Shown piece after piece: positions 37,520 to 61,432 of a stretch of 64,000 nt of DNA; within the stretch, counting starts at the first letter, position 1; the number at the start of each line of letters is the position of its first letter. This DNA is from Candidatus Hydrogenedentota bacterium. Lineage in GTDB: Bacteria > Hydrogenedentota > Hydrogenedentia > Hydrogenedentales > JAJRTN01. The translations under genes and the position numbers were made by a program. The notes beneath the pieces were generated by a model that was not told where the DNA came from, searched no databases, and was given only the letters and a program-made list of their open reading frames with translations. The stretch covers positions 3,149 through 67,148 of the forward strand of contig JAJRTN010000004.1 in the NCBI GenBank assembly GCA_024278275.1, given 5' to 3'.

Positions 37520-37690
37520 ATGGGCCTTGACCCACCATAATCTTCCCCCATGGCAAGATGGTCTCGCCTCAAACACATAGGCATGGTGAGCCAAGGCCCA
37601 CCCACCACGCTCTGCATGGGAACGAGAGAATCTGTGTTCATCTGCGCAATCTGCGGATACATAATCATGGAGCCCCGCCTTCGCGGGAAA
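37520..37690 (+). repeat. Composite approximately 170-nt repeat element, copy 1 (GGGCCTTG..CAAGGCCCACC hairpins + conserved 60-nt core + CCCCGC hairpin)
   Basis: Collinear with 61245-61432. Shared core ggaacgRgagaatctg..cgcaatctgcggatacatWatcatggagccccgccttcgcggg. Lies in a 660-nt lower-GC noncoding gap. Confidence 0.7.
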
Positions 37691-37827
37691 ATGTAGAAGC
37701 GGCTTCCGGCCGCTTTAAATGCGCCGGGATGGCGCATCTATTCTTCGTTCCGACCAGGCCGGGTGGTTCGGAACCAGGAATTGCCGCCGCCGCCCGTGCC
37801 ACGAACAACATGCTGTGCCGTGATCGG

Positions 37828-38271
37828 TTACATTCCCCGAAAGGCATCCCGGATTCGGTCCAGCAGGGCGGTGTCCTCGCCGGTGGCGATGAGCATGAGC
37901 ATGCCTTTCCGGGCGGTCCGTTGGGGAACTTCCTTGGGCTTGGCCGCACCGAGGGCGTCGGCCAGCCCCCATGCTTCGACGATGGCCGTACCGGCGTCCT
38001 TCTTCTGGTATTCAAGGTTTCGAACGATCTTGCCTTCGTCGCCGTATTGGTAAATATCGACCGACGCATCCCCGATGGTCATGGAGACCTGCGCCACGGC
38101 TTCCAGGCCGGGCGTCACTTCCCGGTAATCTGCGATGTCCAGACCGGCCTTCTCGAAGGCGGCCTTCGCACGGGCGAAGGTCTTGGGCTTGGGAAGGAGG
38201 TGGGGAACGACGGGCACGAGGAGCAGGATCACGACAAGAGCGGTAAAGACTTTGACCAGGGGACTGTTCAT
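37828..38271 (-). CDS. Hypothetical membrane-anchored protein at the distal end of the fliP operon
   Basis: TAATG stop/start overlap with fliP. N-terminal TM MNSPLVKVFTALVVILLLVPVV. Not FliQ-like. Confidence 0.45.
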   Translation of the reverse strand: MNSPLVKVFTALVVILLLVPVVPHLLPKPKTFARAKAAFEKAGLDIADYREVTPGLEAVAQVSMTIGDASVDIYQYGDEGKIVRNLEYQKKDAGTAIVEAWGLADALGAAKPKEVPQRTARKGMLMLIATGEDTALLDRIRDAFRGM

Positions 38272-39080
38272 TACTGGAAACTCCTGGAGAGGCCGCCGAG
38301 GAGAAGATGCCACCCGTCGGCCAGGACGAACATGATGATCTTGAAGGGCAGGGATACGAAGATGGGCGGAAGCATCATCATGCCCATGGCCATGAGCGTG
38401 CTCGCCACCACCATATCCACGATGAGGAAGGGGATGTAAAGGAGGAAGCCAATCATGAAGGCCGTGGTCATTTCGCTGACGACAAAGGCGGGAACCAGCA
38501 CATGGGTGGGTACGTCGTCCCACCGCTCGGGCCGGGGCAACTTGGCGATATCCATGAAGAGCTTGATGTCGTTGTCCCGGGTCTGACGAAACATGAAGGT
38601 GCGTATGGGGTCGAGGGCCGCCGTGATGGCTTCCGCCTGGGTGATTTCATCATTAAGATAGGGTTGCAGTGCGCGCTCGTTGACCTGTTGATAGGTGGGC
38701 ATCATGATGAAGAAGGTGAGGAAAAGGGCCAGGCCCACCAGCACCTGGTTGGGCGGGGTCTGCTGGGTGGCCATGGCCTGGCGCAGAAAACCGAGTACGA
38801 CGATAACCCGGGTGAAACAGGTGGTCATCACCAGGATGGCGGGCGCCAGGGAGATGACGGTGATGACGAAAACGATGACGAGGGATGTGGGCAGGTTCTC
38901 CGTATTGACGGCGTCCCGCGCACCCTGAATCAGGTTCATCCCCAGGGGGTTGGGGTCCGGCTGGGCCTGCGCCGCGCCCGCGGCCACGATCATGGCCAGG
39001 AAGATCCATGGGGCGATGTATTTACGATTCCCGGTCACGGACACTTTCCCGGAGGTGACGTTGCAGACGCTGCAAGTCAC
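38271..39080 (-). CDS. fliP: Flagellar export apparatus protein FliP
   Basis: Signal peptide plus conserved FliP core VIVFVITVISLAPAILVMTTCFTRVIVVLGFLRQAMATQQTPPNQVL. Confidence 0.9.
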   Translation of the reverse strand: MTCSVCNVTSGKVSVTGNRKYIAPWIFLAMIVAAGAAQAQPDPNPLGMNLIQGARDAVNTENLPTSLVIVFVITVISLAPAILVMTTCFTRVIVVLGFLRQAMATQQTPPNQVLVGLALFLTFFIMMPTYQQVNERALQPYLNDEITQAEAITAALDPIRTFMFRQTRDNDIKLFMDIAKLPRPERWDDVPTHVLVPAFVVSEMTTAFMIGFLLYIPFLIVDMVVASTLMAMGMMMLPPIFVSLPFKIIMFVLADGWHLLLGGLSRSFQ

Positions 39081-39762
39081 TTCGGAGTTGGGTCAATTCG
39101 TCGTCGGAAGCGGACGTCGGCTCCTCTTTGCCCGTGGCCGCGCCGAGGGCCGCCAGAAAGTCCTGCCGCGACCCCGGGAGGTCGGGGGCGGCGGCTCCTT
39201 CCGGGAGGTACTCGGCAAAGGCGTCTTCCCCGAATTCGGCGACGGGTGCCACGCCGTTTTGCGAGACACCGACGACGAGGACACGTCCGCCGGTATGCAC
39301 GTAAAACAGGGCGGCGCGCGGCCCCAGGCTGACCCTGCCGATGACCCGGCCCAATTGCTGCCCCATGAGCAGCGGGGTTCGGGCGGCGTACCTGCGCAAA
39401 AGAAAACCGGACAGGAGGATCATCCCGACGACGATGCACAACGCCCCCAACGCTTTCCACAGGACATCATTCATGTCGGGCGGCCCGTTGGGGATGGCGC
39501 CCTCCGATGGCGTGCCACCCACCTCGGAACCACCGCCATAAACCGTTTCCATTCGTTTGCGGAAGGCTTCTTCCTCGGCCTGCTCGGCGGGTGTTCGAAT
39601 CGGCGCGGCTTCTTCGCCCCCCTCCGGCGTGGGGAAATCGCGCCCCTCAAGCTCCCACGTAACCGGCGTGGTGTTTTGCAGTGAAGGGGCGCTTTCCTGG
39701 CCGGCCGCGCCCAGCACGACGAGAGCAGCCAGGGCAAGACAGGCTCCTCTTTCCCTATTCAT
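39022..39762 (-). CDS. fliO: FliO-like flagellar protein with an extended acidic N-terminal region
   Basis: C-terminal TM plus FliO-like segment LWKALGALCIVVGMILLSGFLLRRY...GRVSLGPRAALFYVHTGGRVLVVGVSQ. Position directly upstream of fliP. The start MNRERG overlaps the fliN end. Confidence 0.5.
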   Translation of the reverse strand: MNRERGACLALAALVVLGAAGQESAPSLQNTTPVTWELEGRDFPTPEGGEEAAPIRTPAEQAEEEAFRKRMETVYGGGSEVGGTPSEGAIPNGPPDMNDVLWKALGALCIVVGMILLSGFLLRRYAARTPLLMGQQLGRVIGRVSLGPRAALFYVHTGGRVLVVGVSQNGVAPVAEFGEDAFAEYLPEGAAAPDLPGSRQDFLAALGAATGKEEPTSASDDELTQLRSDLQRLQRHLRESVRDRES

Positions 39763-40105
39763 GACCGGATGTTCCCAATTCATCCAAACCGGCAATCTCC
39801 GCGATCCGCACGCTGAGACCGTCCACCAACACAACCACCTCGCCCCGGGCGAAGGGCAGTCCATTGATTTGGAGGTCGGCCATCTCCCCGGCCAGCTTGT
39901 CCAGGGGGAGCACGGAGCCTTCGCGCAAGGCCAGTACGTCGCGCACGGTTGTCTTGCACTTGCCAAGGTCCGCGGTAATGCTGAAGCGCACCTTCAGCAG
40001 GTCCTGAATATCGAGCGTCTCCGGGCCGGGCTGAACCGGACGCAGTTCTTCGTCAAAGTCGTGATCGACCGCTTCGCCGCGCTCTGTCGGATGCTCGTCA
40101 CTCAT
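39755..40105 (-). CDS. fliN: Flagellar motor switch protein FliN (SpoA domain)
   Basis: ETLDIQDLLKVRFSITADLGKCKTTVRDVLALREGSVLPLDKLAGEMADLQINGLPFARGEVVVLVDGLSVRIAEI. Confidence 0.8.
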   Translation of the reverse strand: MSDEHPTERGEAVDHDFDEELRPVQPGPETLDIQDLLKVRFSITADLGKCKTTVRDVLALREGSVLPLDKLAGEMADLQINGLPFARGEVVVLVDGLSVRIAEIAGLDELGTSGHE

Positions 40106-40629
40106 GGCACAATGGGACTGAACTGTTTGTACTTGGACTCCAGGACATAATACTCCTCGGGTGCGCCAAAACGTTTGAGCAGATCGTTGGCCTTTTGCGT
40201 AACCTGCTTGAGAATGGCGTCTTGCGTATAACGGTCGTTCACCTCCGTCAGGGTGCGGTTTCGGTGGAGTTCGGCCACCATGGTGGTAAACCAGGACTTT
40301 CGGCTCTCGATAAGATCGGTCGTTTCGGGGGTTGAGCAGAAAAGAACCACCTGGAAAATAAGGATCGGAACCGGGGCTTCAGGATCGTCCGTCAGCACGG
40401 CGGCCTGCATGGATTCGAGCTCGATTGGCGTGGCCGCCTGGGGGATGATATCGATGGGATCCTTGGGCTCCGCCTCGGCCGGTCCCGCGAGCATTCCGCT
40501 CAAGACGAACTTGTACAACACCACCGCCAATATGGCCGACACGAGGACGATCCCCGTCACGACAATGAGTGTGCTCCGCAGCGGGGAACCGGCCTTACCT
40601 TCCTGTTCCTGTTTCTCTTCATCGGCCAT
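40102..40629 (-). CDS. fliL: Flagellar basal-body-associated protein FliL
   Basis: Single TM (LIVVTGIVLVSAILAVVLY) followed by a FliL-like periplasmic domain. Operon position after motB. Confidence 0.7.
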   Translation of the reverse strand: MADEEKQEQEGKAGSPLRSTLIVVTGIVLVSAILAVVLYKFVLSGMLAGPAEAEPKDPIDIIPQAATPIELESMQAAVLTDDPEAPVPILIFQVVLFCSTPETTDLIESRKSWFTTMVAELHRNRTLTEVNDRYTQDAILKQVTQKANDLLKRFGAPEEYYVLESKYKQFSPIVP

Positions 40630-40632
40630 GAT

Positions 40633-41433
40633 TTACTCCAAGCCTCCGCGGTATTCGACCGGCGAAACGGGATAGCCCCGGGTATTGCGCGGCATCTTCT
40701 CCTCGAGCCGGTCGTAGAGCCCTTCTATGTTACTCCTGTCAACAAGGCCACGCACATAAATCTCCACGCGCCGGTTGGCTTCACGCCCTTCCGGGGTATC
40801 ATTCGTGGCTTTGGGTTGATTGGGACCGACGGCGGTGATTTCGAATTGCTCCGAGGGTATGCCCCCGGTGGTGTAAAGATAGCGGGCCACCGCGTCGGCG
40901 CGATAATAGCTCAGCTCGTAGTTGTCCCGAAAACGGGCGGACTCCGTGACGGGGGTCGCATCGGTGTGGCCGCGAACCTCGATGAAGGCATCGGGCAATT
41001 GGCGAAGTGTTTCGGCCACTTCCCGCAAAAGGGGGTAGGCGTCGGGGCGCAACGTCGCCTGCCCCAAATCGTAGAGCATGGCGCCCGGCAGGCTCAATTT
41101 AAGTCCTCCCACCGCGTCATACTCAATCTTCACCTGGTGCTCTTTACCCTGTATCATCAAGCGCTGCCGAAGGTTGCGTGCCGCTTTTTTCGCCTCGGCG
41201 CTTTTCTTCTTGGGCGGCTGGTACTGGAGCTGAAGCGGGCTTGACTGCCCGGAAAAAATACCAAACGATGCTTGCAGCGCGACCATGGCGTCGTTGAAGT
41301 CTTCCTCGCTGATGGTGGAAAAGGAAAGGAGCAGCACGAAAAAAGTGAGCAGGAGGCTCATGAGATCGCTGAAGGTCACGATCCATGCCGGCGCGCCTTC
41401 CTCGCAGGGCGGACATTTCTTCTTTGCCGCCAT
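40633..41433 (-). CDS. motB: Flagellar stator protein MotB (OmpA-like peptidoglycan-binding C-terminus)
   Basis: WIVTFSDLMSLLLTFFVLLLS plug/TM with the conserved Asp. C-terminal OmpA motif YELSYYRADAVARYL. Confidence 0.85.
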   Translation of the reverse strand: MAAKKKCPPCEEGAPAWIVTFSDLMSLLLTFFVLLLSFSTISEEDFNDAMVALQASFGIFSGQSSPLQLQYQPPKKKSAEAKKAARNLRQRLMIQGKEHQVKIEYDAVGGLKLSLPGAMLYDLGQATLRPDAYPLLREVAETLRQLPDAFIEVRGHTDATPVTESARFRDNYELSYYRADAVARYLYTTGGIPSEQFEITAVGPNQPKATNDTPEGREANRRVEIYVRGLVDRSNIEGLYDRLEEKMPRNTRGYPVSPVEYRGGLE

Positions 41434-41436
41434 GGC

Positions 41437-42204
41437 CTATGCCACCGTGAGTTTCTCACGGATCTCGGGCGAGACGAAAGCCTTCAGCTTCTGCTCGACG
41501 ACCCGCGGATTATCACCGGATTGAATGGACAGAATACCCTCGATGGTGATTTCCTTCTGAAGAAGTTCCATGGCGGTGCGTACCTTGAGCTTTCCCGCCG
41601 ATGGCAGGAAAACAAGGTTGGCGAGAATGGCGCCATAGAGGGTGGTGAGCAAGGCGACGGCCATACCGCCACCGATGGCGGAGGGATCGTCCAGGCCCTG
41701 GAGCATCTGGACCAGGCCGATAAGCGTTCCGATCATGCCGAAGGCCGGCGCGAAAGCGGCCATGGCGTTGAGCACCGCCTGTCCCATGGCATGACGGTCC
41801 TCCATGAAAGCAATCTCGGTGGTCAGGATATCCTTGATGAGCTCGGGCGGCGTGCCGTCAATGGCAAGTTGAACACTCTTCTGCAAGAATTCGTCCCCCG
41901 CCTCACCGGCATGACTTTCCAGGGCGAGAATCCCCTCGCGGCGCGCTACCGTGGCGAACTCAATGATCTTCTGAATCAATTGCTCCGTGGTGCTCTCTTT
42001 CTGAAAGAAGGCGTTCTTGAGCGTTTTCATGACACTCAAAACATCGGCAAGGGGGAAATTGATGAGGGTCGCGGCCAGGGTACCGCCGAAAACCATGATT
42101 ACCGAGGGGATATTAACGAAGGCACCGGCGTTGCCCCCAAGCATGATAGTGATGAATACGAGCGAAATTCCCGACACGAAACCCAGTACGGTTGCAATAT
42201 CCAT
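41437..42204 (-). CDS. motA: Flagellar stator protein MotA
   Basis: Four TM helices. Conserved MotA cytoplasmic loop and C-terminal motifs (LGTLIGLVQML, GGMAVALLTTLYG). Confidence 0.9.
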   Translation of the reverse strand: MDIATVLGFVSGISLVFITIMLGGNAGAFVNIPSVIMVFGGTLAATLINFPLADVLSVMKTLKNAFFQKESTTEQLIQKIIEFATVARREGILALESHAGEAGDEFLQKSVQLAIDGTPPELIKDILTTEIAFMEDRHAMGQAVLNAMAAFAPAFGMIGTLIGLVQMLQGLDDPSAIGGGMAVALLTTLYGAILANLVFLPSAGKLKVRTAMELLQKEITIEGILSIQSGDNPRVVEQKLKAFVSPEIREKLTVA

Positions 42205-42553
42205 AGGGCTCCCTCTCTACCGGAAGTGACACGGTTGGATTCTTTCGGACATGGCGTATGGGGAGGGGCGCAACACCTTTCCCTTCCCACGCAACCGCCT
42301 GCGCGCTTCATCCACGCGCAGGAAACACGCCGCGCCGAATTACGAACTTCATTCTAACACCCCATCACCGGTATCGTCCAAGGCGCGTGTGGAACCCGCC
42401 GGGTGCGTGGTTTGCGCTGGACAGCTTGCCTGCCAGTGCTCTTGCGCCGGTCTTCCACTGGCGGACAAGCTGCCTGTGGCACCGCAAAGGGGTCGTGGCG
42501 ATTGCGCCGTTTCAGACAATCCGCGAGCGCCTGCTGTCATCCTTATGACGATT

Positions 42554-42586
42554 GCGCGGTCGGGGAAAAAAGGGTCCCCGACCGCG
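42554..42586 (-). terminator. Strong 11-bp GC-rich stem-loop about 40 nt downstream of flgE (T-run in the loop, not a canonical intrinsic terminator)
   Basis: cgcggtcgggg-aaaaaagggt-ccccgaccgcg perfect inverted repeat in the flgE-motA intergenic gap. Confidence 0.3.
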
Positions 42587-42624
42587 CTGCGCGATACACA
42601 GAGGTTACGTCACATCACGGGGGA

Positions 42625-43929
42625 CTACCGAACGAGGTTCACGGTCTCCTGCAAAATGGTATCCGCCGCGGTGATGGTCCGGGCGTTGGCCTGGTAACCG
42701 CGCTGGGTGATAATGAGATTGCTGAATTCCTCACCCAGGTCCACGTTTGAGTTTTCGAGCACGCCGCCGGAAACGGTTCCGCGACCGCCGGTGCCCGGCC
42801 GGCCCACCTGGGCGTTGCCCGAGGAAGGCGTCTCGACGAAGGTGTTGTCACCATCGCGGGACAACCCGCCCAGGTTCGCGAAGTTGGCCAAGGCCACCTG
42901 CGCGATGGTCCGGGTCAGGCCGTTGGTGAAGACCCCGTTGATCTCGCCGTTGGCGCCAATGTTGAAGCTCTCCAGCACGCCCCGGGGAAAACCGTTCTGC
43001 GAGCGCAGGGCGATATCGCTGGTGGCCGGGTCGCCGGAGGTGGGATCGAAGCCCGCGCTGAGCTGGGTCACCTCGTCCATGTCGACAACGAACTGGAAGG
43101 GCAACGTGGGAAGGGAATCGGGCAGGGGCGTGCCCAAATCGCCCGATTCCAGGCTGATGGCCAGGGTGGTGCCGGCGGCCAGGGTACCGTCGGTCTGGAA
43201 GGTGATTACATCCGTGGCGCCGCCACCGCCCACGTTCGCGGGAGTGCCGCTTCCGTTGTCAAAGGTGGCTTCCCAGGCCCACTCATTGGCGGTGGTTCCC
43301 TTGGTGAAGACCAGGGAGATCTCACGCTCCGTGCCCAGTGAATCGTAGACCACGATGGTTCGGGTGACGGTGTCCCCGTCGCTCACGTCGGAGTTCAGGT
43401 TGCCCGTCATGGTGGCGGTGGTGGTGGCCTGTACGATGCCCTGGCCGCCCACGGGCACAACAATATCCGAAGCGATGGCGTCGCTGGGAATGACACCGTT
43501 CTCATCGGCCTGGAAACCCTGGACACGCATCCCGGACCCCGGCTCGATCAGTATGCCATTGACATTGAGCGTAAACGAGCCGTCGCGGGTATAGGCGGCG
43601 TTACCGTTGATATCTTCCAAAACGAAGAAGCCCGACCCCTGAATGGCCAGGTCCGACGATATGCCGGTGGTCATCAGCGAACCCTGTCCATGGTTCACGT
43701 CGATGCTGGCGATGTTGGCGCCCAACCCGATCTGGAGCGGGTTGCTGCCGCCGAAACCGCCGAGGGGCGCGGAACCGCCCGCCAGGGTCTGGGAAAAGAG
43801 ATCCTGAAACAACATGCGCGAGGAGCGGTAGCCAACGGTGTTCACGTTGGCGATGTTGGCCGCCACCACGTCAAGCCGGCGCTGATGCGCCCGCAAACCG
43901 GTTACACCGGTAAACATTGCACTTCCCAT
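42625..43929 (-). CDS. flgE: Flagellar hook protein FlgE
   Basis: N-terminal LRAHQRRLDVVAANIANVNTVGYR. C-terminal NVDLGEEFSNLIITQRGYQANARTITAADTILQETVNLVR. Confidence 0.9.
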   Translation of the reverse strand: MGSAMFTGVTGLRAHQRRLDVVAANIANVNTVGYRSSRMLFQDLFSQTLAGGSAPLGGFGGSNPLQIGLGANIASIDVNHGQGSLMTTGISSDLAIQGSGFFVLEDINGNAAYTRDGSFTLNVNGILIEPGSGMRVQGFQADENGVIPSDAIASDIVVPVGGQGIVQATTTATMTGNLNSDVSDGDTVTRTIVVYDSLGTEREISLVFTKGTTANEWAWEATFDNGSGTPANVGGGGATDVITFQTDGTLAAGTTLAISLESGDLGTPLPDSLPTLPFQFVVDMDEVTQLSAGFDPTSGDPATSDIALRSQNGFPRGVLESFNIGANGEINGVFTNGLTRTIAQVALANFANLGGLSRDGDNTFVETPSSGNAQVGRPGTGGRGTVSGGVLENSNVDLGEEFSNLIITQRGYQANARTITAADTILQETVNLVR

Positions 43930-43942
43930 GAGAATACACTCC

Positions 43943-44452
43943 TTAGGTCATGGCGCCGCGTCGGTCGTTCCGCGGTGCCCGGGCGTCCCTCAAGGGGTCC
44001 GGCCCGTATACTGAGTTCAATGCCGTATCCGCCCGGGCTTCGGGCCGATCCGGTCGGTGCTCCGCCTCGCTCGTGGGGAGCACGGCGGCACTGTCGATGT
44101 GGGTAAAGATGGACGCATTGCCGTCACTCGTGTCAACGGCCGTGATAATCGTCCGGTTGGGGACACTGGCCACGAGGGCCACATCGCCCAGCAGGACCAA
44201 TGCCTCTTTTCCGCCTTTCCCGGCCAATTGGTCGAGCGTCTCGCCCACGCGGGCCAGGTCTTCAGCGGACAATTCGACACCGCGCGTTCGGAGCCGTTGC
44301 GCCGCGTGCGCCGAAACGCGCACGGCCCGGGAGGCCTCCATGGTTTCGCCGAGAATATCGGCAAAGCGCGTGCCTGGGGTTGCGGCCGGCCGTGTGTCCG
44401 ATGGCACGGAACGGAACGTCACCCGTGCTTCGAGGGATACAGGGTTAACCAT
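43943..44452 (-). CDS. Flagellar operon protein of unknown function (flgD-flgE intergenic gene, TIGR02530-like position)
   Basis: Conserved location between flgD and flgE as in Bacillus/spirochaete operons. No catalytic motif. The start MVNPVSLEA overlaps the flgD stop by 8 nt. Confidence 0.45.
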   Translation of the reverse strand: MVNPVSLEARVTFRSVPSDTRPAATPGTRFADILGETMEASRAVRVSAHAAQRLRTRGVELSAEDLARVGETLDQLAGKGGKEALVLLGDVALVASVPNRTIITAVDTSDGNASIFTHIDSAAVLPTSEAEHRPDRPEARADTALNSVYGPDPLRDARAPRNDRRGAMT

Positions 44453-45020
44453 GGTCCGACTCCGCCACGGGCGCTTCATCGGCCACCGACAGCACGTTGG
44501 TCATGGGCAGCACTTCTCCGTCTACCGTCAGGACCACGATACTGCCCTCCAGGTGTACGGCATCGACCGTACCGGTCACGGCGCCTCCATCCATCCCAAC
44601 GCCCTCGACATACTTGCCGAGCATACTTTGGGCATTGATGAAGTTAAGCTGATCAATGTTGCCGGTCAGGTATTCAAGCCCGGTCACAACGCCTTCGAAA
44701 CGGTCGTTCAGTTGCTGCATCTGTTCGAGGGAAGAAAACTGGGCCAGTTGGGCGACCATCTCGGCGTTATCAACGGGCTCCAGCGGGTTCTGATTCTGCA
44801 TCTCCAACACAAGCAGTTGAAGAAAGGCATCCCGGTCAAGTTGATCGCCGGCGGCGCCGGCGACCGGCTCCCCGGTATCGACGGCCTTGTCGGTGGAACC
44901 CGGGGCAACCGCGGACGCCTTGGCGTTGGCGCTGATTGTTTCTCGAGCGGCTTGCCGGTCCGCCTTGGTCACCGAGAGAGTTCCGGAGACATTGGCACGG
45001 AACGCTACAAGTGCGTTCAT
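44445..45020 (-). CDS. flgD: Flagellar hook assembly/capping protein FlgD
   Basis: RDAFLQLLVLEMQNQNPLEPVDNAEMVAQLAQFSSLEQMQQL signature. Confidence 0.85.
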   Translation of the reverse strand: MNALVAFRANVSGTLSVTKADRQAARETISANAKASAVAPGSTDKAVDTGEPVAGAAGDQLDRDAFLQLLVLEMQNQNPLEPVDNAEMVAQLAQFSSLEQMQQLNDRFEGVVTGLEYLTGNIDQLNFINAQSMLGKYVEGVGMDGGAVTGTVDAVHLEGSIVVLTVDGEVLPMTNVLSVADEAPVAESDHG

Positions 45021-45099
45021 GGAACACTTCCTCCTCTTTTTCGAATCGGGTCCGTCACGGCAACGGGCCGCAACGGCGTTTCATGATTGTTTGCGCAGG

Positions 45100-47298
45100 C
45101 TACACCAGCAGGTTAAGCCCCTTCGCGGACAGGTAGTCCCGCGGACGCCGCGTGCCCGTTCCCGGCGTCCCGGAATAGGTCCGGGAAGCCGAAGCGGCCG
45201 GGTGCCACCATCCGCGAGGCGCATGGGCCTGCCCGCCGTTATCGCGTCCCATGGAACCACCGCCCGGTTCCGGGTGGGACCCCATGTGAGCGCTTACATC
45301 CACCCGCGACAGGTGTGTTCCGTCGCGTGCGAGGGCCTCCCGCAATGCGGGCACGTGAACTTCCATCACATCCCGAACCACGGGACTGGCGGATACGAGC
45401 CGAACGCTGACTTCGCCCTTCCGGCCGCGGACTTCCACGTGAAGTTCCCCCAGGGATTGGGGGACCAGCCGAATCCGGACGCGCTGTCCACCGCCGGCCA
45501 GCAGGCTTTTCACCTGCCGAACCGTCTCCTCGCCCAACGACTCCAGGGAGACGCGGGAAGGGGAGTCACCGGCATGACTGACGGCCGGCGGCGATGGGTG
45601 CCCGTCCGCCGCCCGAACCGTCACGCCTTCGGCGTGGGACACGGGCGCGACCGGCCCGTTCTCAACACGGACGTGGGCTTCGCCGGACACGGGGTGCCGC
45701 AACGGAACCGTTTTTTCCGTTTCGGGCGCCTGGGCCGTGTCCCGCTGTGACGCGACACGCGCCGCCGCCACGTTCACACTGTCCCGTGTTACGGAACGAA
45801 AGTTCGCTTCCGTCACCACGGGTTTCGCGGAGCCTTCAACCACGCGCAGCGCCGATTTCACGGCAAACGGTTCCGGTTTCGTCACGGTATCCGCCGCCAC
45901 AGCCTTCGGTGCCGCGACAGGTTCCTTCGCCGATTCCACCACCGGGGTTGCCGAAGGCAAACCAGATGGTGCCGCCACCGTCTCGCTTGTAACGGTCGTC
46001 AAAATGACCGGACGGGCCGAAGCCGTGCCGTTCACCTCGATGCTCCGAAACACCGGGGCCGGGGATTCCGACCTGGCCACCATCTTCCCGGTATCCGCTT
46101 TGGACGAAAGGACCGTTACCACCGGCCCCTTCGGCGCCGCAGCATCCATAGGAACACCCCTGTCGGCCAGCTTGGCATCACGACCCGCCGCCATGGCACC
46201 GGCCCGTGACAGGTCGACCACCGGCACGACCCGGGCGGGCCGGGCTTCCACCGGGCGGGCCGCCGCGTCGGTCAAAGACACCTTCGTGGCTTTCGACGGC
46301 ACGTCGGCCGTTTCGACCGCTTCGCCTGCGAATGCTGCCACGGGGGCGGTCTTCGCGGGGGGTGACGATGAAACCCAAACCCCGGTTTCATCAATCGCCG
46401 GTGAGACTGCCGGAGCGCTCGCCGCTTCCACGCCGCGAGGCACGGAAACCCGCGGAGCAGGACCGTTGTCCGTGCCCGTTTCACCGGCGACGATAAAAGC
46501 GGCACGTTCCGACCCGGCCGCCACCTTGGTTTGGGCCGGTGCGGGATTCGAAGCGGCCTGGGACCGCCTCGGTACGACAAGTTCCGGCATCACGGGCGGT
46601 GGTTCAGTGGACGGAACCCGTGGTTTTGTGCCATCACCCGTGGCGCGCCCGGTGAACTCGGCGGCCGCCCCGGTAGCGGACCCGGCCGGAATTGCTTCAC
46701 CGGGACTCGTCCGGGGCGTGACGGCCAGATCTCTCAGCGCGGAGGACCGGGTAAGCCGGAAGGGAGCCGGTGCCTCACCCGTGTGGTTTTCCGCTTCCTC
46801 CGAGAGAAACCCAGCGGAAGCCATTGCCACCTCGGCGTTTGGCGCTTGAACACTTTCCACCGCCACCACCGAATTTTCGGCCGTGCCGGATTCAAGCACC
46901 GTTCCCTCCACGGATGCAAGGTCCGAGACAGGCACCATGCCTGTCTGGTCCGTGGGTGCCGGGGCCGCAAGGACATCCTCGCCACTCGCTGACGGTGGCG
47001 AAGGTGGGACACTTGCGTTCTCCACCTCACCGGACGCGGCCAGGGCCGTTGAAAGCGCCTGACCCGTCTCTCCGGCGTCCGCAACCTCGGGCAGGCTCCC
47101 GCTCGGGCTTTCGTCTTCCACGGCGCTTTCCTCGACCGTGTCCTGCGAAGGTTCAGGCGGGACGATTCCCTGGAAGGACGCAAGCAATTCGCCGAACGCC
47201 TCCTCCGGGATATCGCGCTTTGCCTTTCCTGTTTCCGGCCCTGCTGAAGAAGCGGCGTCAGAAGAAGGCTGAAGCATCTGTAACAAGTTTACATACAT
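45100..47298 (-). CDS. fliK: Flagellar hook-length control protein FliK (long Pro/Ala/Val-rich spacer, C-terminal Flg_hook domain)
   Basis: C-terminal RIRLVPQSLGELHVEVRGRKGEVSVRLVSASPVVRDVMEVHVPALREALARDGTHLSRVDV. Confidence 0.7.
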   Translation of the reverse strand: MYVNLLQMLQPSSDAASSAGPETGKAKRDIPEEAFGELLASFQGIVPPEPSQDTVEESAVEDESPSGSLPEVADAGETGQALSTALAASGEVENASVPPSPPSASGEDVLAAPAPTDQTGMVPVSDLASVEGTVLESGTAENSVVAVESVQAPNAEVAMASAGFLSEEAENHTGEAPAPFRLTRSSALRDLAVTPRTSPGEAIPAGSATGAAAEFTGRATGDGTKPRVPSTEPPPVMPELVVPRRSQAASNPAPAQTKVAAGSERAAFIVAGETGTDNGPAPRVSVPRGVEAASAPAVSPAIDETGVWVSSSPPAKTAPVAAFAGEAVETADVPSKATKVSLTDAAARPVEARPARVVPVVDLSRAGAMAAGRDAKLADRGVPMDAAAPKGPVVTVLSSKADTGKMVARSESPAPVFRSIEVNGTASARPVILTTVTSETVAAPSGLPSATPVVESAKEPVAAPKAVAADTVTKPEPFAVKSALRVVEGSAKPVVTEANFRSVTRDSVNVAAARVASQRDTAQAPETEKTVPLRHPVSGEAHVRVENGPVAPVSHAEGVTVRAADGHPSPPAVSHAGDSPSRVSLESLGEETVRQVKSLLAGGGQRVRIRLVPQSLGELHVEVRGRKGEVSVRLVSASPVVRDVMEVHVPALREALARDGTHLSRVDVSAHMGSHPEPGGGSMGRDNGGQAHAPRGWWHPAASASRTYSGTPGTGTRRPRDYLSAKGLNLLV

Positions 47299-47458
47299 AT
47301 ATTACTCACCTCCTTTCCTGTGGGAATACCAATACCGGGGGCGAACACCCCCGGGGGTTGGGAAGAATGTGGTCGTACAGGGGGATGGGACGTATGAGAC
47401 ATATGGGACGTATGGAATACATACATCCCCTGGAAGCCCCCGAAACCATCTTGTGCGG

Positions 47459-48501: not shown

Positions 48502-48505
48502 GGTC

Positions 48506-50535: not shown

Positions 50536-50554
50536 TCCCGCTTATATCGGCGGC

Positions 50555-53144: not shown

Positions 53145-53353
53145 GGTTCACACCTTTTCGTATACGCACGCCCATGGGTTCACGCCCGGCGCCGCCGGGG
53201 CATCATCACTCGCGCCTGGAAAAGGCTCACGGCCACACTTCGGCCCGCACCAAAGCATGCCCTCACCGCTCCGTACCGTCCGGCGCGAACCCCGCGGGGG
53301 ATCCCAAGTCCGCCCGTGGACACCGAACAACCGATACGAAATTGTGAATTAAA

Positions 53354-53383
53354 TTATAACCTCCGCGCCGGGTCATCCAGCAA
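53354..53383 (-). promoter_or_regulatory. Candidate sigma-70-type promoter upstream of fliF (-35 TTGCTG, 18-nt spacer, -10 TATAAT)
   Basis: On the minus strand: TTGCTGgatgacccggcgcggaggtTATAAT within the AT-rich patch aattgtgaattaaattataacc of the 320-nt fliE-fliF intergenic region. Confidence 0.35.
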
Positions 53384-53467
53384 TTCCACCGGACAACCAG
53401 TCCGAAAAACCTGCCGGGGATGCAGCCTTTTTGACGGAAACGCCTTCCCCGGTCACTTTCGGCCTCG

Positions 53468-53788
53468 CTATATCTGCATCCGCATGATCTCCTCGTAGGC
53501 GGACATGACCTTGCTTCGCACGGTCATCATGGTCTGAAAAGCAACATCCGCTTTCTCGATGGCGACCATCGCCTCGGATACATCCTTGATTTCCCCCGCC
53601 ACCAACTGCTTGATGGTGGTGTCCGCCTCGTTCTGGAGCTGTTGCACTTCGGTCACCGCGTCGGCGAGCACCTCCTTGAAGGAAGCGGTCTCCCCCGTCG
53701 CGCCGGGCAAACGGGCCGGTCGCATCTGCTTGGCGCTCACCTCGATGTTCGAGCGCCCGATAGCCGGTATTTTGAGCGGATCCGCCAT
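53468..53788 (-). CDS. fliE: Flagellar hook-basal body protein FliE
   Basis: FKEVLADAVTEVQQLQNEADTTIKQL...AMVAIEKADVAFQTMMTVRSKVMSAYEEIMRMQI. Confidence 0.85.
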   Translation of the reverse strand: MADPLKIPAIGRSNIEVSAKQMRPARLPGATGETASFKEVLADAVTEVQQLQNEADTTIKQLVAGEIKDVSEAMVAIEKADVAFQTMMTVRSKVMSAYEEIMRMQI

Positions 53789-53805
53789 GGCAGAGACAGT
53801 TTACC

Positions 53806-54228
53806 TTAGTTCTCGATAATGCGCAACGTCTGTTGTTCCATACGCTTGCTGTTGGCGATGACCGCGATGTTCGCTTCATAAGCCCGCTGGGCCGAAATGA
53901 GGTTCACCATCTCCACCGCCACGTCAATGTTGGGATACGACACAAACCCGTCCGCGTTGGCGTCGGGATGGCCGGGCTCGTAGACCGGACGAAGCGGCGA
54001 CATGTCGCTCACAATACGCTTGACCTCCACCCCCGCCTTGCTGCCGGGGCCCGAACGGCCCAGGCGTTCCCCGCGAAGGAGAACCATCTGGCGCCGAAAG
54101 GCGCCCCCACCGCCCTCGGTGCGGGTCGTGCCGACATTGGCCAGGTTGTTGGCGATGATGTTCATGCGGATCCGCTGGGCCTTAAGTCCGCTTACCGCGA
54201 TCTCGTTGGCGGAGATGGCTTCCATCAT
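53806..54228 (-). CDS. flgC: Flagellar basal-body rod protein FlgC
   Basis: MMEAISANEIAVSGLKAQRIRMNIIANNLANVGTTRT and C-terminal AYEANIAVI rod motif. Confidence 0.9.
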   Translation of the reverse strand: MMEAISANEIAVSGLKAQRIRMNIIANNLANVGTTRTEGGGGAFRRQMVLLRGERLGRSGPGSKAGVEVKRIVSDMSPLRPVYEPGHPDANADGFVSYPNIDVAVEMVNLISAQRAYEANIAVIANSKRMEQQTLRIIEN

Positions 54229-54239
54229 GTCAACAATTC

Positions 54240-54638
54240 CTAACGGCTCAGCGCATTCAAAGTGGTCTTCAATACGGCGAAACGCTTGGCCAGTATTCGT
54301 GCGTAAGTCGTGTATTTACCAGTGTTTTCAGCCAGCTTGGCCATCTGATCATCCAAGTCTACTTTATTGTAGTCATTTTTGGACAAAAATGCAATACCTT
54401 CGAATTGTGGGCGATCCGTGCGAAAGTCGAGATGCCGGGGTTGGGTGGTGCGGAGAGCGAACCCACCCCGGCCCTCGATTGCTTCACGCAAAGTCGCCTT
54501 GAAGTCCAGCTCTGTGGGGGTATAGCCGGGGGTATCGACGTTGGCGATGTTGTTGGCGATGTAGCGGTGGTTCAGCGCCGCCGCGCGCATGGCCCCCAGC
54601 AGCACCTGGTCGGTATCTATCCCGGCGAATGCACCCAA
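54240..54638 (-). CDS. flgB: Flagellar basal-body rod protein FlgB (TTG start)
   Basis: AAGGAGA RBS 7 nt upstream of an in-frame TTG. RAAALNHRYIANNIANVDTPGYT rod N-motif. The longer 308-aa tool ORF reads through the promoter region. Confidence 0.8.
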   Translation of the reverse strand: MGAFAGIDTDQVLLGAMRAAALNHRYIANNIANVDTPGYTPTELDFKATLREAIEGRGGFALRTTQPRHLDFRTDRPQFEGIAFLSKNDYNKVDLDDQMAKLAENTGKYTTYARILAKRFAVLKTTLNALSR

Positions 54639-54691: not shown

Positions 54692-54751
54692 ATGTGGGGA
54701 AAAGAAACACACGAACGGACATGGACTCGCACGGGAAGGGGATTCCAGCAC

Positions 54752-54791
54752 GGTCCGTGCCCGTCCGTGTTGGTCCGTGTTCGTCCGTACA
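54752..54791. promoter_or_regulatory. Four tandem 10-bp direct repeats (GTCCGTGNNN) 60-100 bp upstream of the sigma-54 promoter; candidate enhancer/bEBP-binding array
   Basis: gtccgtgccc|gtccgtgttg|gtccgtgttc|gtccgtacag with an exact 10-bp period (one helical turn). Confidence 0.45.
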
Positions 54792-54850
54792 GCCTACCGA
54801 GTGGGAAAGGCTTGCCCACCCGGCGGACCATCCTTGCCGGTAGGGCCGGG

Positions 54851-58486: not shown

Positions 58487-58676
58487 CGGTCTATCCTTTC
58501 ACAACGCGCACATCCGCATGGACATTCACGCGCATGGTCAATCGGCCTTCATGCTTATTTTGCAGACTGTTACTCAATGAATCCATGCACCATACGGTCG
58601 CTTTCATGTATGATCCTGCCGTATTGATCCGATTCCTGCGACCTTCTTGGGTCCCGTCAAATGAGGAGAAAGAACC

Positions 58677-59516: not shown

Positions 59517-59540
59517 AACGTCTCGATAAGGAAACGTATC

Positions 59541-59882
59541 ATGGAAACCTGGTTTGGCGAACAGTATTACTTGTACATCTGGATTCCCGGCACGGCGCTG
59601 GGCTGTCTCGCGGGCCTGACCGGCGCGCTGGCGGGCGTCTTCGCGCCGCGCGGAAGAATGCGCGGGCTGGTCTACGCGCTTTGCGCGTTGATCATGGGCG
59701 GTTCCGCCGTTATGCTGGTGGCGGCCATCGTGGCTAAACTGGGTGGACAACCCTATGGCATCTGGTATGGCCTGGGGCTGCCCGGATGTATCGGGATCTT
59801 CGTCATGGGTTTCAACTTTCCCGTGGTCCGACGAGTCTATGCCAACGCCGAAATGCGCCGGCTTCAAGCCAGGGATGGGTGA
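59541..59882 (+). CDS. Small predicted membrane protein (3 TM)
   Basis: 113-aa hydrophobic ORF. No motif. Overlaps the N-terminal extension of the next tool ORF. Confidence 0.3.
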   Translation: METWFGEQYYLYIWIPGTALGCLAGLTGALAGVFAPRGRMRGLVYALCALIMGGSAVMLVAAIVAKLGGQPYGIWYGLGLPGCIGIFVMGFNFPVVRRVYANAEMRRLQARDG

Positions 59883-59917
59883 ACGGCCTGGACGGGCGGG
59901 CGATGGAAGGTTCGAAA

Positions 59918-61246
59918 ATGAAAACACGATTCTTTTTTCAACTGGCTTTGACGCTGTCTTTGGGAATCAATGCCATGGCGATACCGGGTACTCTTGATGG
60001 CGTGGCGGAAGCCGTGATGCGGCCCTATGCCGGACCGAGTGTGCGGGGCGTGGACACGTCCACGCTGACGGGCAAGGTGATGTGCGGCTACCAAGGCTGG
60101 TTCACCTGCGAAGGGGACGGGGCGGAACGGGGATGGTTCCACTGGGGCAACCGCGGCGGATTCAAGCCCGGATCGTGCAGTATCGACTTCTGGCCGGACG
60201 TGTCGGAGCTGGACAGGGACGAGTTGTATGCCACACCCTTTCGGCATGGCGACGGGCGGACCGCGTACGTGTTCAGTTCGATGAACCGCAAAACCGTGTT
60301 GCGCCACTTCCAATGGAGCAAGACCTACGGCATTGACGGCATGTTCGTGCAGCGTTTCGCCGTGGAAACGCTGCACCCGTCCGGGCTGAACCATAAGACC
60401 ACGGTGTTGGCCCACTGTCGGGAGGGCGCGAATCGCTATGGCCGGGCCTATGCGGTGATGTACGACCTGTCGGGCTTGCGCGAGGGTCAGATGGCGGGTG
60501 TCATGGCCGACTGGCGCCGCCTGGTGGACCGCATGAAACTGACGCGGGACCCCGCGGACCGGGCCTATCTGCACCACAAGGGAAAACCGGTGGTGGCGGT
60601 GTGGGGCATCGGGTTCAACGACCACCGGCAATACACTCTCGACGAGTGCGGCGCGCTGATCGACTTCCTCAAGTATGATCCCGAGTACGGCGGATGCACG
60701 GTCATGATCGGGGTGCCCTCCTATTGGCGGAACAGCGATGGCAAGCGTGACGCGGTGGCCGATCCCAAGCTCATCGAGGTGATGCTGAAGGCCGACATCA
60801 TCAGCCCGTGGAGCGTGGGCCGATACGGAAACCCCAAGGGCGCCTTGCGCTACGCCAAAAACGTATGGGAAGGGGATATCGCGTGGTGCAGGGACCACGG
60901 AAAAGACTACCTGCCGGTGGTGTTTCCGGGATTCAGTTGGCACAATCTGCGGGGCAATGCGCCGTTGGACCAGATACCGCGCCTGAAAGGAACGTTTCTC
61001 TGGAGCCAATACGCCGCCGCGGTGGAATCGGGGGCGACCATGGTGTACCAGGCCATGTTCGACGAAGTGGACGAAGGGACGGCCATCTTCAAATGCACCA
61101 ACGACCCGCCCGTGGGAAAGTCCTCTTTCGTGACCTACGAGGGCTTACCAAGCGACTACTACCTCTGGCTGGTGGGACAGGCGGCCGCGTTCCTGCGCAA
61201 CGGAAAGCCGATCCCGAAGGAGATGCCCGCCTACCCGGCGAAGTAG
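59918..61246 (+). CDS. Secreted glycoside-hydrolase-like protein (GH99/GH71-like TIM-barrel candidate)
   Basis: RBS GGAAGG and ATG 59918. Signal peptide MKTRFFFQLALTLSLGINAMA. Motifs GYQGWFTCEGDG, WGNRGGF, QAMFDEVDEGTAIFK. Confidence 0.5.
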   Translation: MKTRFFFQLALTLSLGINAMAIPGTLDGVAEAVMRPYAGPSVRGVDTSTLTGKVMCGYQGWFTCEGDGAERGWFHWGNRGGFKPGSCSIDFWPDVSELDRDELYATPFRHGDGRTAYVFSSMNRKTVLRHFQWSKTYGIDGMFVQRFAVETLHPSGLNHKTTVLAHCREGANRYGRAYAVMYDLSGLREGQMAGVMADWRRLVDRMKLTRDPADRAYLHHKGKPVVAVWGIGFNDHRQYTLDECGALIDFLKYDPEYGGCTVMIGVPSYWRNSDGKRDAVADPKLIEVMLKADIISPWSVGRYGNPKGALRYAKNVWEGDIAWCRDHGKDYLPVVFPGFSWHNLRGNAPLDQIPRLKGTFLWSQYAAAVESGATMVYQAMFDEVDEGTAIFKCTNDPPVGKSSFVTYEGLPSDYYLWLVGQAAAFLRNGKPIPKEMPAYPAK

Positions 61247-61432
61247 GGTGGGCCTTGGCCACCATGCCCCTCTTCCAAGGGAGACTGTTTTGTCGTCAAG
61301 GTTTCAGTCTTGGTGGGCCAAGGCCCACCCTGCGGAGCTACCCGCCACGCCCTGCGTAGGAACGGGAGAATCTGCGCAATCTGCGGATACATTATCATGG
61401 AGCCCCGCCTTCGCGGGGATGACGGAAGGCAG
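61245..61432 (+). repeat. Composite approximately 185-nt repeat element, copy 2 (two GGTGGGCC-NN-GGCCCACC hairpins + conserved core + CCCCGCCTTCGCGGGG hairpin)
   Basis: Collinear with 37520-37690 in the same orientation. Starts at the stop codon of the upstream gene and lies between convergent genes. Confidence 0.7.

Follow-up and report, generated by a model that had tools for sequence, protein, structure and literature searches.

Two related elements lie on the forward strand of the window, the 64,000-nt stretch of DNA that was analysed, at 37519-37692 (copy 1) and 61243-61466 (copy 2). Pairwise alignment showed the two to be collinear, and both lie outside genes, so the repeat pair of the preliminary description is real and its intergenic location was given correctly. 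Copy 1 sits in a 662-nt gap (37167-37827) with a GC content of 0.566. Copy 2 occupies the whole of a 223-nt gap between convergent genes. Copy 1 runs antisense to its upstream gene, copy 2 in the sense direction. An extent of about 180 nt had been proposed, which is too short for both: copy 2 reaches 61466, where a 31-nt motif ends, and the type represented by copy 1 starts at about 37330. The identical runs between the two copies are 23 and 24 nt. The peptide PRRRGSMIMYPQIAQ, reported as common to two shadow ORFs, was found in both of these minus-strand ORFs. The modules of the two copies and the related features of the window are collected in Table 1.

Table 1. Modules of the two copies and related features in the window.
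Feature	Position	Strand	Description
Lone GTAG REP (GTAGGGTGGGCCGTGGCCCACCATGG), then CGTC-type hairpin remnant	8294-8356	+	between convergent genes
Isolated CGTC-type hairpin (CGTCATTCCCGCGAAGGCGG...)	11814-11833	+	3' end truncated
CGTC-type hairpin, matches published SRM pattern	31585-31612	+	left flank of small gene 31697-31906 (-)
CGTC-type hairpin, matches published SRM pattern	31996-32023	+	right flank of small gene 31697-31906 (-)
Partial inverted copy in copy 1 gap	37188-37273	-	CGTC-type hairpin 37241-37270 (head on +), then minus-strand module D 37218-37188 (MTICTELHG*)
Module F, copy 1 upstream flank	37330-37518	+	part of repeated unit in some members; tblastn P0126 (71% aa, 37602-37330), P0125 (37668-37444)
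Copy 1 REP unit 1 (AATGGGCCTTGACCCACCAT)	37519-37538	+	degenerate: GTAG head lost, 3 stem positions broken
Copy 1 spacer type S1	37539-37582	+	conserved in P0126 and P0127; unrelated to copy 2 spacer
Copy 1 REP unit 2	37583-37606	-	inverted relative to unit 1; HH dimer, REPIN-like
Copy 1 linker and heptamer array	37607-37666	+	units 37630-37636 (ATCTGTG), 37640-37646 and 37649-37655 (ATCTGCG), then GATACAT
Copy 1 CGTC-type hairpin	37667-37692	-	CGTC head lost (CATTTTCCCGCGAAGGCGGGGCTCCAT)
Module E (CGGAACCAGGAAT...)	37769-37809	+	second copy 31544-31584; third encoded at P0001 C-terminus
Copy 2 REP unit 1 (GTAGGGTGGGCCTTGGCC-ACCATG)	61243-61266	+	GTAG of this first palindrome overlaps TAG stop of upstream GH99-like gene
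Copy 2 spacer type S2	61267-61308	+	conserved in P0001 and P0127 C-terminus
Copy 2 REP unit 2	61309-61333	-	inverted, head GCAGGG; pairs with unit 1, stem about 20 bp
Copy 2 linker and heptamer array	61334-61396	+	13 extra linker nt relative to copy 1; two units 61370-61376 and 61379-61385, then GATACAT
Copy 2 CGTC-tagged hairpin, dRS3/NTS type	61397-61425	-	minus-strand sequence CCGTCATCCCCGCGAAGGCGGGGCTCCAT
Module D, 31-nt motif	61436-61466	+	9-codon mini-ORF VTICTKLHG*; also P0124 C-terminus

Each copy contains two palindromes of the GGTGGGCC-NN-GGCCCACC type, about 65 nt apart from start to start. With up to 3 mismatches, the palindrome matched 7 times in the 64-kb window against 1.85 expected. 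Five units were aligned, all of them intergenic (5 units in 64 kb). They share an 8-bp GGTGGGCC/GGCCCACC stem, in which 92% of cells are paired, and the general form is GTAGGGTGGGCC-NN-GGCCCACC with a GTAG tag. The head reads GTAGGG or GCAGGG overall: GTAG at 8294 and 61243, and GCAG at 61333 on the reverse complement. In copy 1 the heads of both units are degenerate. GTAG REPs are defined as short palindromes of 20-40 bp, one end of which has an unpaired tetranucleotide of the GTAG type, and the units have this form.

The two units of each copy are inverted, with a spacer of 42-44 nt, tags that face outwards and loops of TT then AA. They form an inverted HH dimer, that is, a REPIN: in both copies the units lie within 20-100 bp of each other and can fold into one hairpin. 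A pair of hairpins per copy had been described at first. Two palindromes are present in each copy, but the folds showed that they are not just local hairpins, as pairing between the units gives a single long stem. This stem was present in all four folds, three of which had z scores of -3.0 to -5.0. No Y1_Tnp domain or other transposase was found with Pfam among the proteins of the 64-kb window.

At the other end of the core is a hairpin of a second type. In the CGTC-1/dRS3 family a CGTC head is followed by a stem of about 8 bp, a loop of 4 nt and a CCA tail (PMC3733652), and the alignment of the hairpins in the window gave the same arrangement. The stem has up to 8 positions, of which 6-7 are paired in the window copies, the first positions being sometimes unpaired. 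A terminal CCCCGC-CTTC-GCGGGG hairpin had been proposed for both copies; it is perfect in copy 2, but copy 1 reads GCGGGa. The 20-mer CGTCATYCCCGCGAARGCGG occurs exactly 4 times in the window against 0.09 expected. Outside this genome, hairpins in replicons of Azospirillum lipoferum are 97% identical over 30-31 nt.

In Neisseria, dRS3/NTS hairpins are the single-stranded DNA target of Ssn GIY-YIG nucleases, and SsnA cuts the NTS consensus (PMC11893778). We found no site in the window that matches the 28-nt NTS consensus with up to 3 mismatches. The SRM pattern matched 2 sites (31585 and 31996) against 0.57 expected; only these 2 of about 7 hairpin sites pass, and the hairpins of copy 1 and copy 2 fail the strict pattern in its last segment. 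No GIY-YIG protein was found in the window with Pfam, and the 69-aa gene between the two SRM sites likewise has no GIY-YIG match.

Between the REP dimer and the CGTC-type hairpin lies a tandem array of heptamers, (ATCTGCG)2-3-GATA, with a period of 9-10 nt, about one helical turn. The preliminary description had called the core more than a simple REP hairpin, and this is correct, as it consists of the heptamer array and the CGTC-type hairpin. The duplication of about 10 nt that it assigned to copy 1 is not one. Copy 2 misses a unit, and four other family members have three heptamers, like copy 1. In IMG/VR contigs the array motif was found at 74 sites in 54 loci, mostly with three units; 48 of the 74 have an inverted partner and about 88% are intergenic. 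No description of such an array was found in the literature searched.

A six-frame peptide search and a profile search of 1.84 billion proteins returned spurious ORFs that run across at least five further copies of the element. One (P0124) is on a contig of 132,083 bp, which has the length of the window's own contig and is almost certainly that contig, but lies outside the window. The others (P0001, P0125, P0126 and P0127) are on contigs of 101,220, 41,428, 34,143 and 25,823 bp, and all are NCBI-only singletons. This genome has no close relative in the databases: identity of the GH99-like gene falls from 100% to 69%, and that of AtpD is no higher than 86%. Since no close relative is available, the five further copies almost certainly come from the same Hydrogenedentota MAG. 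The resulting copy number of at least 7 and the spread over at least 5 contigs are lower bounds.

The arrangement of the modules varies from locus to locus. Among the seven loci mapped, the spacer is S1 or S2, the REP is single or a dimer, the heptamers number 2 or 3 and the module order is variable, with module D at opposite ends in different copies. Lone modules are scattered in the window at 8294, 11814, 31585, 31996 and 37241. Palindromes combined with conserved linker motifs in an arrangement that differs by locus are the make-up of BIME/NIME mosaics.

The core is much more strongly conserved than the adjoining REPs and spacers. A 48-nt stretch (37640-37687 against 61370-61417) is 98% identical between the copies, and the 35 nt upstream of it are 86% identical. 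In the window each half of the core has exactly two occurrences, where 100 shuffles gave an expectation of 0. Between the copies, 1 of 48 positions differs in the core and 9 of 43 in the REPs (Fisher p = 0.006), which would not be predicted if the unit had been inserted whole and had then simply decayed neutrally.

This contrast could mean that the core, about 110 nt of linker, heptamer array and CGTC hairpin, is a small mobile element of its own, younger and nested beside GTAG REPs that were already in place. The core is constant in six loci, while the flanks vary among a REP dimer with S1 or S2, a single REP and module D. REPs are also known insertion targets for IS elements (PMC3733652). 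However, just two DNA copies are at hand for comparison, the junction with the REP differs between them by a 13-nt indel, and every core seen had a REP or module D beside it. The same pattern would arise by gene conversion or by selection on the core. We consider a nested insertion unlikely. A more specific form is somewhat less probable again. In this form the core with (ATCTGCG)3 would be a discrete non-autonomous element, active in recent times, with GTAG REPs as its targets; the enzyme acting on it would be specific for hairpins in ssDNA, either an Ssn-type GIY-YIG nuclease or a Y1 transposase. If this were true, the core would be a physical link between the two superfamilies of REPs and a third module, a widespread tandem heptamer array that usually occurs in inverted pairs.

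Another reading is that the core is a functional element under selection, with copies that are retained for this function. It could be a cis-element, such as a 3'-UTR stabiliser or a set of heptamers that bind a protein along one helix face, or a small RNA. The near-identity of the core in the two copies, the spacing of the heptamers at about one helical turn and the conservation of the array in many unrelated contigs are consistent with this, as is the RNA fold of copy 2 (z = -5.0). The fold score is, however, mainly due to the stem of the REP dimer. At the gathering threshold of Rfam the element had no match, and in E-value mode it gave only a sub-threshold, generic long-hairpin match on both strands. 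The five palindromes contain no compensatory change; the departures from pairing are 3 unpaired cells, 1 wobble and 1 deletion, and all variation disrupts pairing. The two copies are oriented differently to their upstream genes, the arrays of the viral contigs have no orientation bias to genes (35:28), and no sigma-70-like promoter was found. The element does not have the features of a structured small RNA family, and the earlier suggestion of a structured small RNA is unsupported given the missing Rfam family, the lack of compensatory change and the inconsistent orientation to neighbouring transcription units. A functional core of either kind appears quite improbable.

The two copies flank flagellar genes, and it had been proposed that they delimit a block with the whole flagellar cluster and glycoside hydrolases. 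The cluster is not whole. The operon extends from flgB as far as fliP, and the window yielded no fliQ, fliR, flhB, flhA, fliM or flagellin gene. A 23.7-kb cassette bounded by direct copies, which could be deleted or moved, would agree with the shared orientation of the copies, with their identical runs and with the unusual stop of the operon at fliP, next to copy 1. Identity over 23-24 nt lies near the lower limit for RecA. The two copies could conceivably recombine, but the same holds for any dispersed repeat. Against a cassette, at least five other copies lie elsewhere and modules are spread throughout the window. The transcription units of the block lie on both strands and are unrelated, and the block does not form a functional unit. 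Neither in the block nor anywhere else in the window was an integrase, transposase or other recombinase gene found with Pfam, and GC inside the block is 0.58-0.68, as elsewhere in the window, with a flat profile. Synteny past the atp operon is not conserved in those relatives that are available, and these are too remote to show whether the block is present or absent. With repeats that are not boundary-specific, no mobility genes and ordinary composition, the block resembles neither a genomic island nor a composite transposon. A mobile cassette is very improbable, and the delimiting role is not supported. The flanking position is most likely a coincidence, because family members are dispersed elsewhere in the same genome.

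Both elements are probably members of a dispersed, non-coding family of mosaic intergenic repeats of the BIME/NIME kind in the genome of an uncultivated member of the Hydrogenedentota. The REP dimer is kin to the GTAG superfamily of REPs and the CGTC hairpin to the CGTC superfamily; this kinship is established, as are the anatomy, the dispersal and the variable module order. Each copy combines an inverted GTAG REP dimer, a linker with the ATCTGCG array and a CGTC hairpin in opposite orientation, sometimes with modules D, E and F. The REP palindromes, the heptamer array and the CGTC hairpin are each widespread as kinds of intergenic repeat. Judging from anatomy alone, the modules may be non-autonomous elements that spread in single-stranded DNA and are mobilised in trans by enzymes that recognise hairpins and are presumably encoded elsewhere in the genome. 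The putative mobiliser of the GTAG REPs is a RAYT-type Y1 transposase. The CGTC/NTS hairpins may be handled by an Ssn GIY-YIG nuclease, as they are bound and cut in other bacteria. Modules would accumulate in tolerated intergenic gaps, mostly downstream of genes, and any effect on a neighbouring gene, such as stabilisation of mRNA 3' ends, would be incidental. The copies would flank the flagellar operon since the family is common, with a full copy roughly every 30-45 kb of this contig, and would define no unit.

REPINs and GTAG REP HH dimers have been defined before (Bertels & Rainey 2011, PMC3337134; Di Nocera et al. 2013, PMC3733652). The dimers described here resemble them in the 20-25-nt palindrome with an unpaired GTAG-type tag, in the two inverted units with tags outside, in TT then AA at the loop centres, in a 20-100-nt spacer that is conserved within subtypes, and in the folding of the whole dimer as one hairpin. 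They are also intergenic, mostly downstream of genes, and accompanied by single decayed units. Unlike in REPINs, a non-palindromic core is regularly attached to the dimer and shows stronger conservation than the REPs, and the host phylum, Hydrogenedentota, is outside the phyla surveyed.

The second hairpin resembles CGTC-1 REPs (dRS3/NTS, Ssn-related motifs; PMC3733652, PMC11893778) in its CGTCAT head, its GC-rich stem, its loop of GAAG or GAAA and its CCA tail. In the window the consensus is CCGTCATYCCCGCGAARGCGGGRMTCCAYG, almost that of NTS (CGTCATTCCCGCGMAVGCGGGAATCYRG). As in that family, the hairpins occur singly, on the flanks of a small gene or within mosaics. Unlike in that family, the stems are mostly CCCCGC/GCGGGG and not ATTCCCGC/GCGGGAAT.

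Among the three readings first offered, MITE-like mobile units came closest, through the REPIN anatomy and the spread over at least five contigs, whereas the boundary and small-RNA readings were unsupported. Like the Correia/NEMIS MITEs, the elements are 100-250 nt long, non-coding and dispersed, have terminal inverted repeats and often lie just past stop codons. No target-site duplication was recognisable at the ends of either copy, as judged from the sequences of these two copies. Unlike in Correia/NEMIS, the inverted repeats are themselves REP-type palindromes.

In overall organisation the family is comparable to the BIMEs of E. coli and the NIMEs of Neisseria, which are also intergenic mosaics of palindromes in alternating orientation and conserved non-palindromic linkers, with a composition that varies by locus. 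BIMEs are bound by IHF and gyrase. The linker sequences of the present family are unrelated to those of BIMEs and NIMEs, and, unlike in either, both REP superfamilies are combined here with a tandem heptamer array.

The two repeats, copy 1 (37519-37692) and copy 2 (61243-61466, +), align collinearly over 37450-37760 and 61180-61500. They are 98% identical over a 48-nt core (37640-37687 and 61370-61417) and 86% identical over the 35 nt upstream of it. Each half of the core has exactly 2 matches in the window, against 0 expected from 100 dinucleotide shuffles. The alignment confirms the preliminary description of collinear, same-orientation repeats with a conserved core and palindrome pairs. Both are intergenic, as it had also claimed: copy 1 lies in a 662-nt gap (37167-37827, GC 0.566), and copy 2 occupies the gap separating two convergent genes, which encode a GH99-like protein and an M14 carboxypeptidase. 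There the GTAG of the first palindrome of copy 2 overlaps a TAG stop codon.

Each copy contains two GGTGGGCC-NN-GGCCCACC-type palindromes, and at ≤3 mismatches the window has 7 such sites compared with 1.85 expected. Aligned by orientation, the window's five palindromes give the consensus G(T/C)AGGGTGGGCCTTGGCCCACCATG, with a GTAG-type head that is unpaired, a stem of 8 bp around a 2-nt loop, and a short tail. Heads point outward in both copies, and the loops are TT, then AA. Downstream follow a linker, ATCTGCG heptamers repeated in tandem at intervals of 9-10 nt (3 units in copy 1, 2 in copy 2) and a hairpin whose minus-strand sequence is CCGTCATCCCCGCGAAGGCGGGGCTCCATG. In copy 2 a 31-nt motif (module D) comes next. 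The reverse complement of this motif occurs with a CGTCAT-type hairpin in the gap of copy 1, so the same gap also holds a partial inverted copy.

The 31-nt repeat encloses a 9-codon mini-ORF at 61436-61465 (+), at 37218-37189 (-) and at the C-terminus of P0124, a spurious ORF product from another copy (VTICTKLHG*, MTICTELHG*, VTICTEVQG*). The 5 differences between the two window copies are one start-to-start change (ATG/GTG), 2 synonymous changes, one E/K change and one stop-to-stop change (TAG/TAA). The mini-ORF is coding-like in appearance; with three copies, this may be chance.

In folds of either strand, the two palindromes pair with each other to form one long stem. The four folds have minimum free energies of -59.5 to -91.8 kcal/mol, with z = -1.9, -5.0, -3.0 and -3.8. 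A structured small RNA family, one of the possibilities raised in the preliminary description, is not supported: the repeat had no Rfam match at gathering thresholds, and among the five palindromes no pair was changed on both sides. Departures from pairing amount to three unpaired cells, one G-U and one deletion, most of them in copy 1. Such a pattern reflects decay rather than the upkeep of a structure. The covariation result covers the palindromes; the core is represented by two DNA copies that are 98% identical. In E-value mode Rfam returned RF03306 (mir-3923), a generic long-hairpin match on both strands and far below threshold. Relative to the upstream gene, copy 2 is sense and copy 1 is antisense. 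A scan of the core found no sigma-70 promoter. A role as intrinsic terminator was rejected: the copy 2 hairpins have no T-run after them, and the REP-hairpin matches in copy 1 have weak T-tails only.

Direct searches for further copies were negative. The 25-nt core pattern had 0 exact matches in GTDB representative genomes, and in JGI metagenome contigs it had a single chance match inside a low-GC coding region. No relative emerged when GTDB genomes were scanned with back-translated peptides. Additional copies were therefore sought through spurious ORFs, which gene callers often place across such repeats. The shadow peptide reported for both copies is real. A chimeric six-frame peptide of copy 2 recovered the protein P0001, and a shadow-peptide profile run against 1.84 billion proteins recovered P0123, P0124, P0125, P0126, P0127 and the distant P0128, a protein built of tandem CGTC-type hairpins. 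P0123 is the window's own ORF 37249-37737(-). All family ORF proteins found are NCBI-only singletons.

P0123 and P0124 are carried by a 132,083-bp contig together with P0003, which is 100% identical to the window's GH99-like protein. P0124 is not encoded in the window and therefore marks a further, third copy on that contig. P0001, P0125, P0126 and P0127 are on contigs of 101,220, 41,428, 34,143 and 25,823 bp. After the identical protein, identity to the GH99-like gene falls to only 69-70% in the next best homologue. For AtpD the best identity is 86%, and the named best matches (82-86%) are Candidatus Hydrogenedentes/Hydrogenedentota. These drops in identity indicate that the databases lack a sister genome, and we infer that the extra copies belong to the same assembly as the window. 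The family thus has at least 7 copies on at least 5 contigs; the actual count probably runs to tens, because only a fraction of copies attracts an ORF call. At the atp loci of three Hydrogenedentota relatives the repeat is absent, and synteny is not shared beyond the atp operon.

To map the modules, the peptides were placed on the six-frame translations of the window. As listed in the table, the copies combine two spacer types (S1 and S2) with different neighbours, and single modules are found alone. P0125 and P0126 extend into the 190-nt stretch preceding copy 1 (37330-37518), and in some copies the repeat therefore includes this flank. The family is a BIME/NIME-like mosaic that combines REP/REPIN units with a CGTC hairpin.

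Repeat modules, family ORF products and neighbouring genes
Feature	Position	Strand	Remark
GTAG palindrome with CGTC hairpin remnant	8294-8356		lone module
CGTC hairpin	11814		lone
CGTC hairpins	31585 and 31996		lone
CGTC hairpin	37241		lone
Module E	31544-31584 and 37769-37809		short repeat
31-nt motif (module D)	61436-61466	+	continuation of copy 2
31-nt motif, reverse complement	37188-37218	-	after CGTCAT-type hairpin 37241-37270 (minus-strand order)
P0001			spacer S2 (copy 2 type); three heptamers like copy 1; 13-nt linker segment missing from copy 1
P0124			31-nt motif on opposite side of core
P0125			one palindrome in place of dimer
P0126			spacer S1 (copy 1 type)
P0127			spacer S1 (copy 1 type); both spacer types present, ~500 nt apart
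Flagellar operon	38271-54500	-	flgB, flgC, fliF, fliG, fliH, fliI, fliJ, fliK, flgE, motA, motB, fliO, fliP
GH99-like gene	59786-61246	+	upstream of copy 2
M14 carboxypeptidase gene	61470-63062	-	other side of copy 2
GTAGGGTGGGCC-NN-GGCCCACC singlet, IMG/VR contig L061	3046-3067	-	
GTAGGGTGGGCC-NN-GGCCCACC singlet, IMG/VR contig L062	3627-3648	+	

The copies enclose 23.7 kb, which had been read as a block of flagellar and glycoside hydrolase genes delimited by the repeats. Besides the flagellar operon, the block contains genes for a 1211-aa NPCBM-domain protein, an AraC-family regulator and the GH99-like protein. The operon ends with fliP and the gene for a 145-aa unknown membrane-anchored protein (37828-38265). 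Only ~1 kb separates a fliL-like gene from fliP. The window contains none of fliQ, fliR, flhB and flhA, which normally come after fliP, and no fliM or flagellin gene.

The reading as a delimited block was not borne out. The repeat family is dispersed, Pfam finds no integrase, transposase, RAYT or GIY-YIG protein in the block or the window, GC content is uniform across the window, and no tRNA genes were found. With three copies on the 132-kb contig, any two neighbours necessarily flank something. The preliminary description had named, as evidence against its own proposal, a generic repeat in hundreds of copies without positional relationship to the block; in kind, with at least 7 copies counted, this is what was found. 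The boundary of a mobile flagellar cassette is not supported; it would be interesting if true, but the evidence points elsewhere.

Elsewhere in the window, the operon for the F-type ATP synthase contains a gene for a 325-aa protein (22742-23719, +) in which four c-subunit hairpin domains are fused (Pfam ATP-synt_C x4). A separate c subunit of ~110 aa (23845-24174, +) follows. Three further Hydrogenedentota genomes encode this pair as well (L002 4499-5854, L003 4013-5413, L004 4371-5763), and the pair is thus a feature of the lineage. An M3 oligopeptidase F gene is split into adjacent ORFs (1813-2823 and 2848-3633, +); the first carries the N-terminal domain and the start of the catalytic domain, and the second the remainder. 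The cause is either a frameshift, making the gene a pseudogene, or an error in the assembly. A 906-aa protein (12205-14925, +) pairs a PASTA domain with a caspase (Peptidase_C14) domain, an unusual combination.

The best-supported reading of the family is that of non-autonomous repeats mobilised in trans, hairpin-forming units that would spread and decay in intergenic DNA. A RAYT would mobilise the GTAG REPs, and an Ssn-type nuclease is the known partner of CGTC/NTS hairpins; both enzymatic steps are suggested by the repeat families. Between copy 1 and copy 2 the mismatches number 1/48 in the core, 5/35 in the linker and 9/43 in the REPs, and the spacers are unrelated. The difference between core and REPs (Fisher p = 0.006) does not fit neutral decay of one inserted unit. 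The core may be a younger element inserted beside older REPs, it may have been homogenised by gene conversion, or it may be under selection.

The heptamer array, tttt.ATCTGCG.tAATCTGCGtAATCTGCGGATAAa, has a wide distribution among GC-rich 'viral' contigs. There it usually forms inverted pairs that fill short intergenic gaps, and a single contig can carry as many as 8 sites. The pattern ATCTGCGNNATCTGCGGATA has 74 sites in 54 IMG/VR loci; 53 of 70 sites are three-unit arrays, for 48 of 74 an inverted partner lies no more than 200 nt away, and 63 of 72 are intergenic. In a gene-aware count, 35 arrays abut gene starts and 28 abut gene ends, with no orientation preference. Inverted partners, intergenic placement and lack of orientation preference all indicate that the arrays behave as arms of another hairpin-type intergenic repeat, not as promoters. 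Many do sit 6-30 nt before a start codon, yet those facing starts hardly outnumber those facing ends. For a FliA-type promoter, GCGGATAA resembles GCCGATAA, but, read by eye, the nearest TAAA lies 3 nt too close. A DnaA box was also rejected (TTATCCGCA against TTATCCACA, only 8/9 positions, no other support).

Similarity between the window and the IMG/VR loci ends at the 30-nt array. The array adjoins GTAGGGTGGGC-type REPs in one locus (L034) and CGTC-type hairpins in three (L027, L035, L053); the composite pattern of array plus CGTC hairpin is absent from IMG/VR. Searching the literature by exact strings found no published description of the array. Conserved across many unrelated environmental and viral contigs, it is the one piece that may merit its own study.

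Hydrogenedentota are known almost only from MAGs. The present family adds REP-type mosaics that combine GTAG and CGTC palindromes to this phylum. In MAGs, such repeats give rise to spurious ORF annotations, and assemblies are likely to break at them.

Di Nocera et al. (PMC3733652) assign most REPs to one of two superfamilies, GTAG-tagged or CGTC-tagged. GTAG dimers that carry their tags on the outside ('HH') have conserved 20-100-bp spacers and can fold into one large stem-loop (PMC3733652). The REPIN is the same object, with TT and AA at the two palindrome centres (Bertels and Rainey, PMC3337134). The hairpin pair in the window agrees with these descriptions point by point. Exact GTAGGGTGGGCC-NN-GGCCCACC palindromes with the same CCATG tail are intergenic singlets in two IMG/VR contigs, so this REP type is not restricted to the present genome.

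The terminal hairpin of the repeat agrees with the CGTC-1 family, which takes in Neisseria dRS3 (PMC3733652), in its CGTC head, 4-nt loop and CCA tail. It was the sole part of the repeat matched in a plasmid BLAST. Azospirillum lipoferum replicons share it at 97% identity over 30-31 nt, and a related hairpin follows atpC in another Hydrogenedentota MAG. The sequence CGTCATYCCCGCGAARGCGG occurs exactly 4 times in the window against 0.09 expected. The window's CGTC-hairpin consensus is almost CGTCATTCCCGCGMAVGCGGGAATCYRG, the consensus of the Neisseria NTS, which the GIY-YIG nuclease SsnA targets in single-stranded DNA (PMC11893778). The evidence for this kinship is mixed. At ≤3 mismatches the 28-nt NTS has 0 sites in the window. 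The published degenerate pattern of the Ssn-related motif (SRM) is passed only by 31585 and 31996, against 0.57 expected. Between these two directly repeated CGTC/NTS-type hairpins (31585-32023), which are 93% identical to each other, lies a 69-aa gene (31697-31906, -). By eye its product resembles a GspF/PilC N-terminal domain; it has no Pfam match, and a GIY-YIG identity was rejected for lack of Pfam support. The NTS-like hairpin in Hydrogenedentota widens the range where Ssn-type ssDNA nucleases may act, and the arrangement at 31585-32023 is the same as the 'NTS-gene-NTS' layout of Neisseria.
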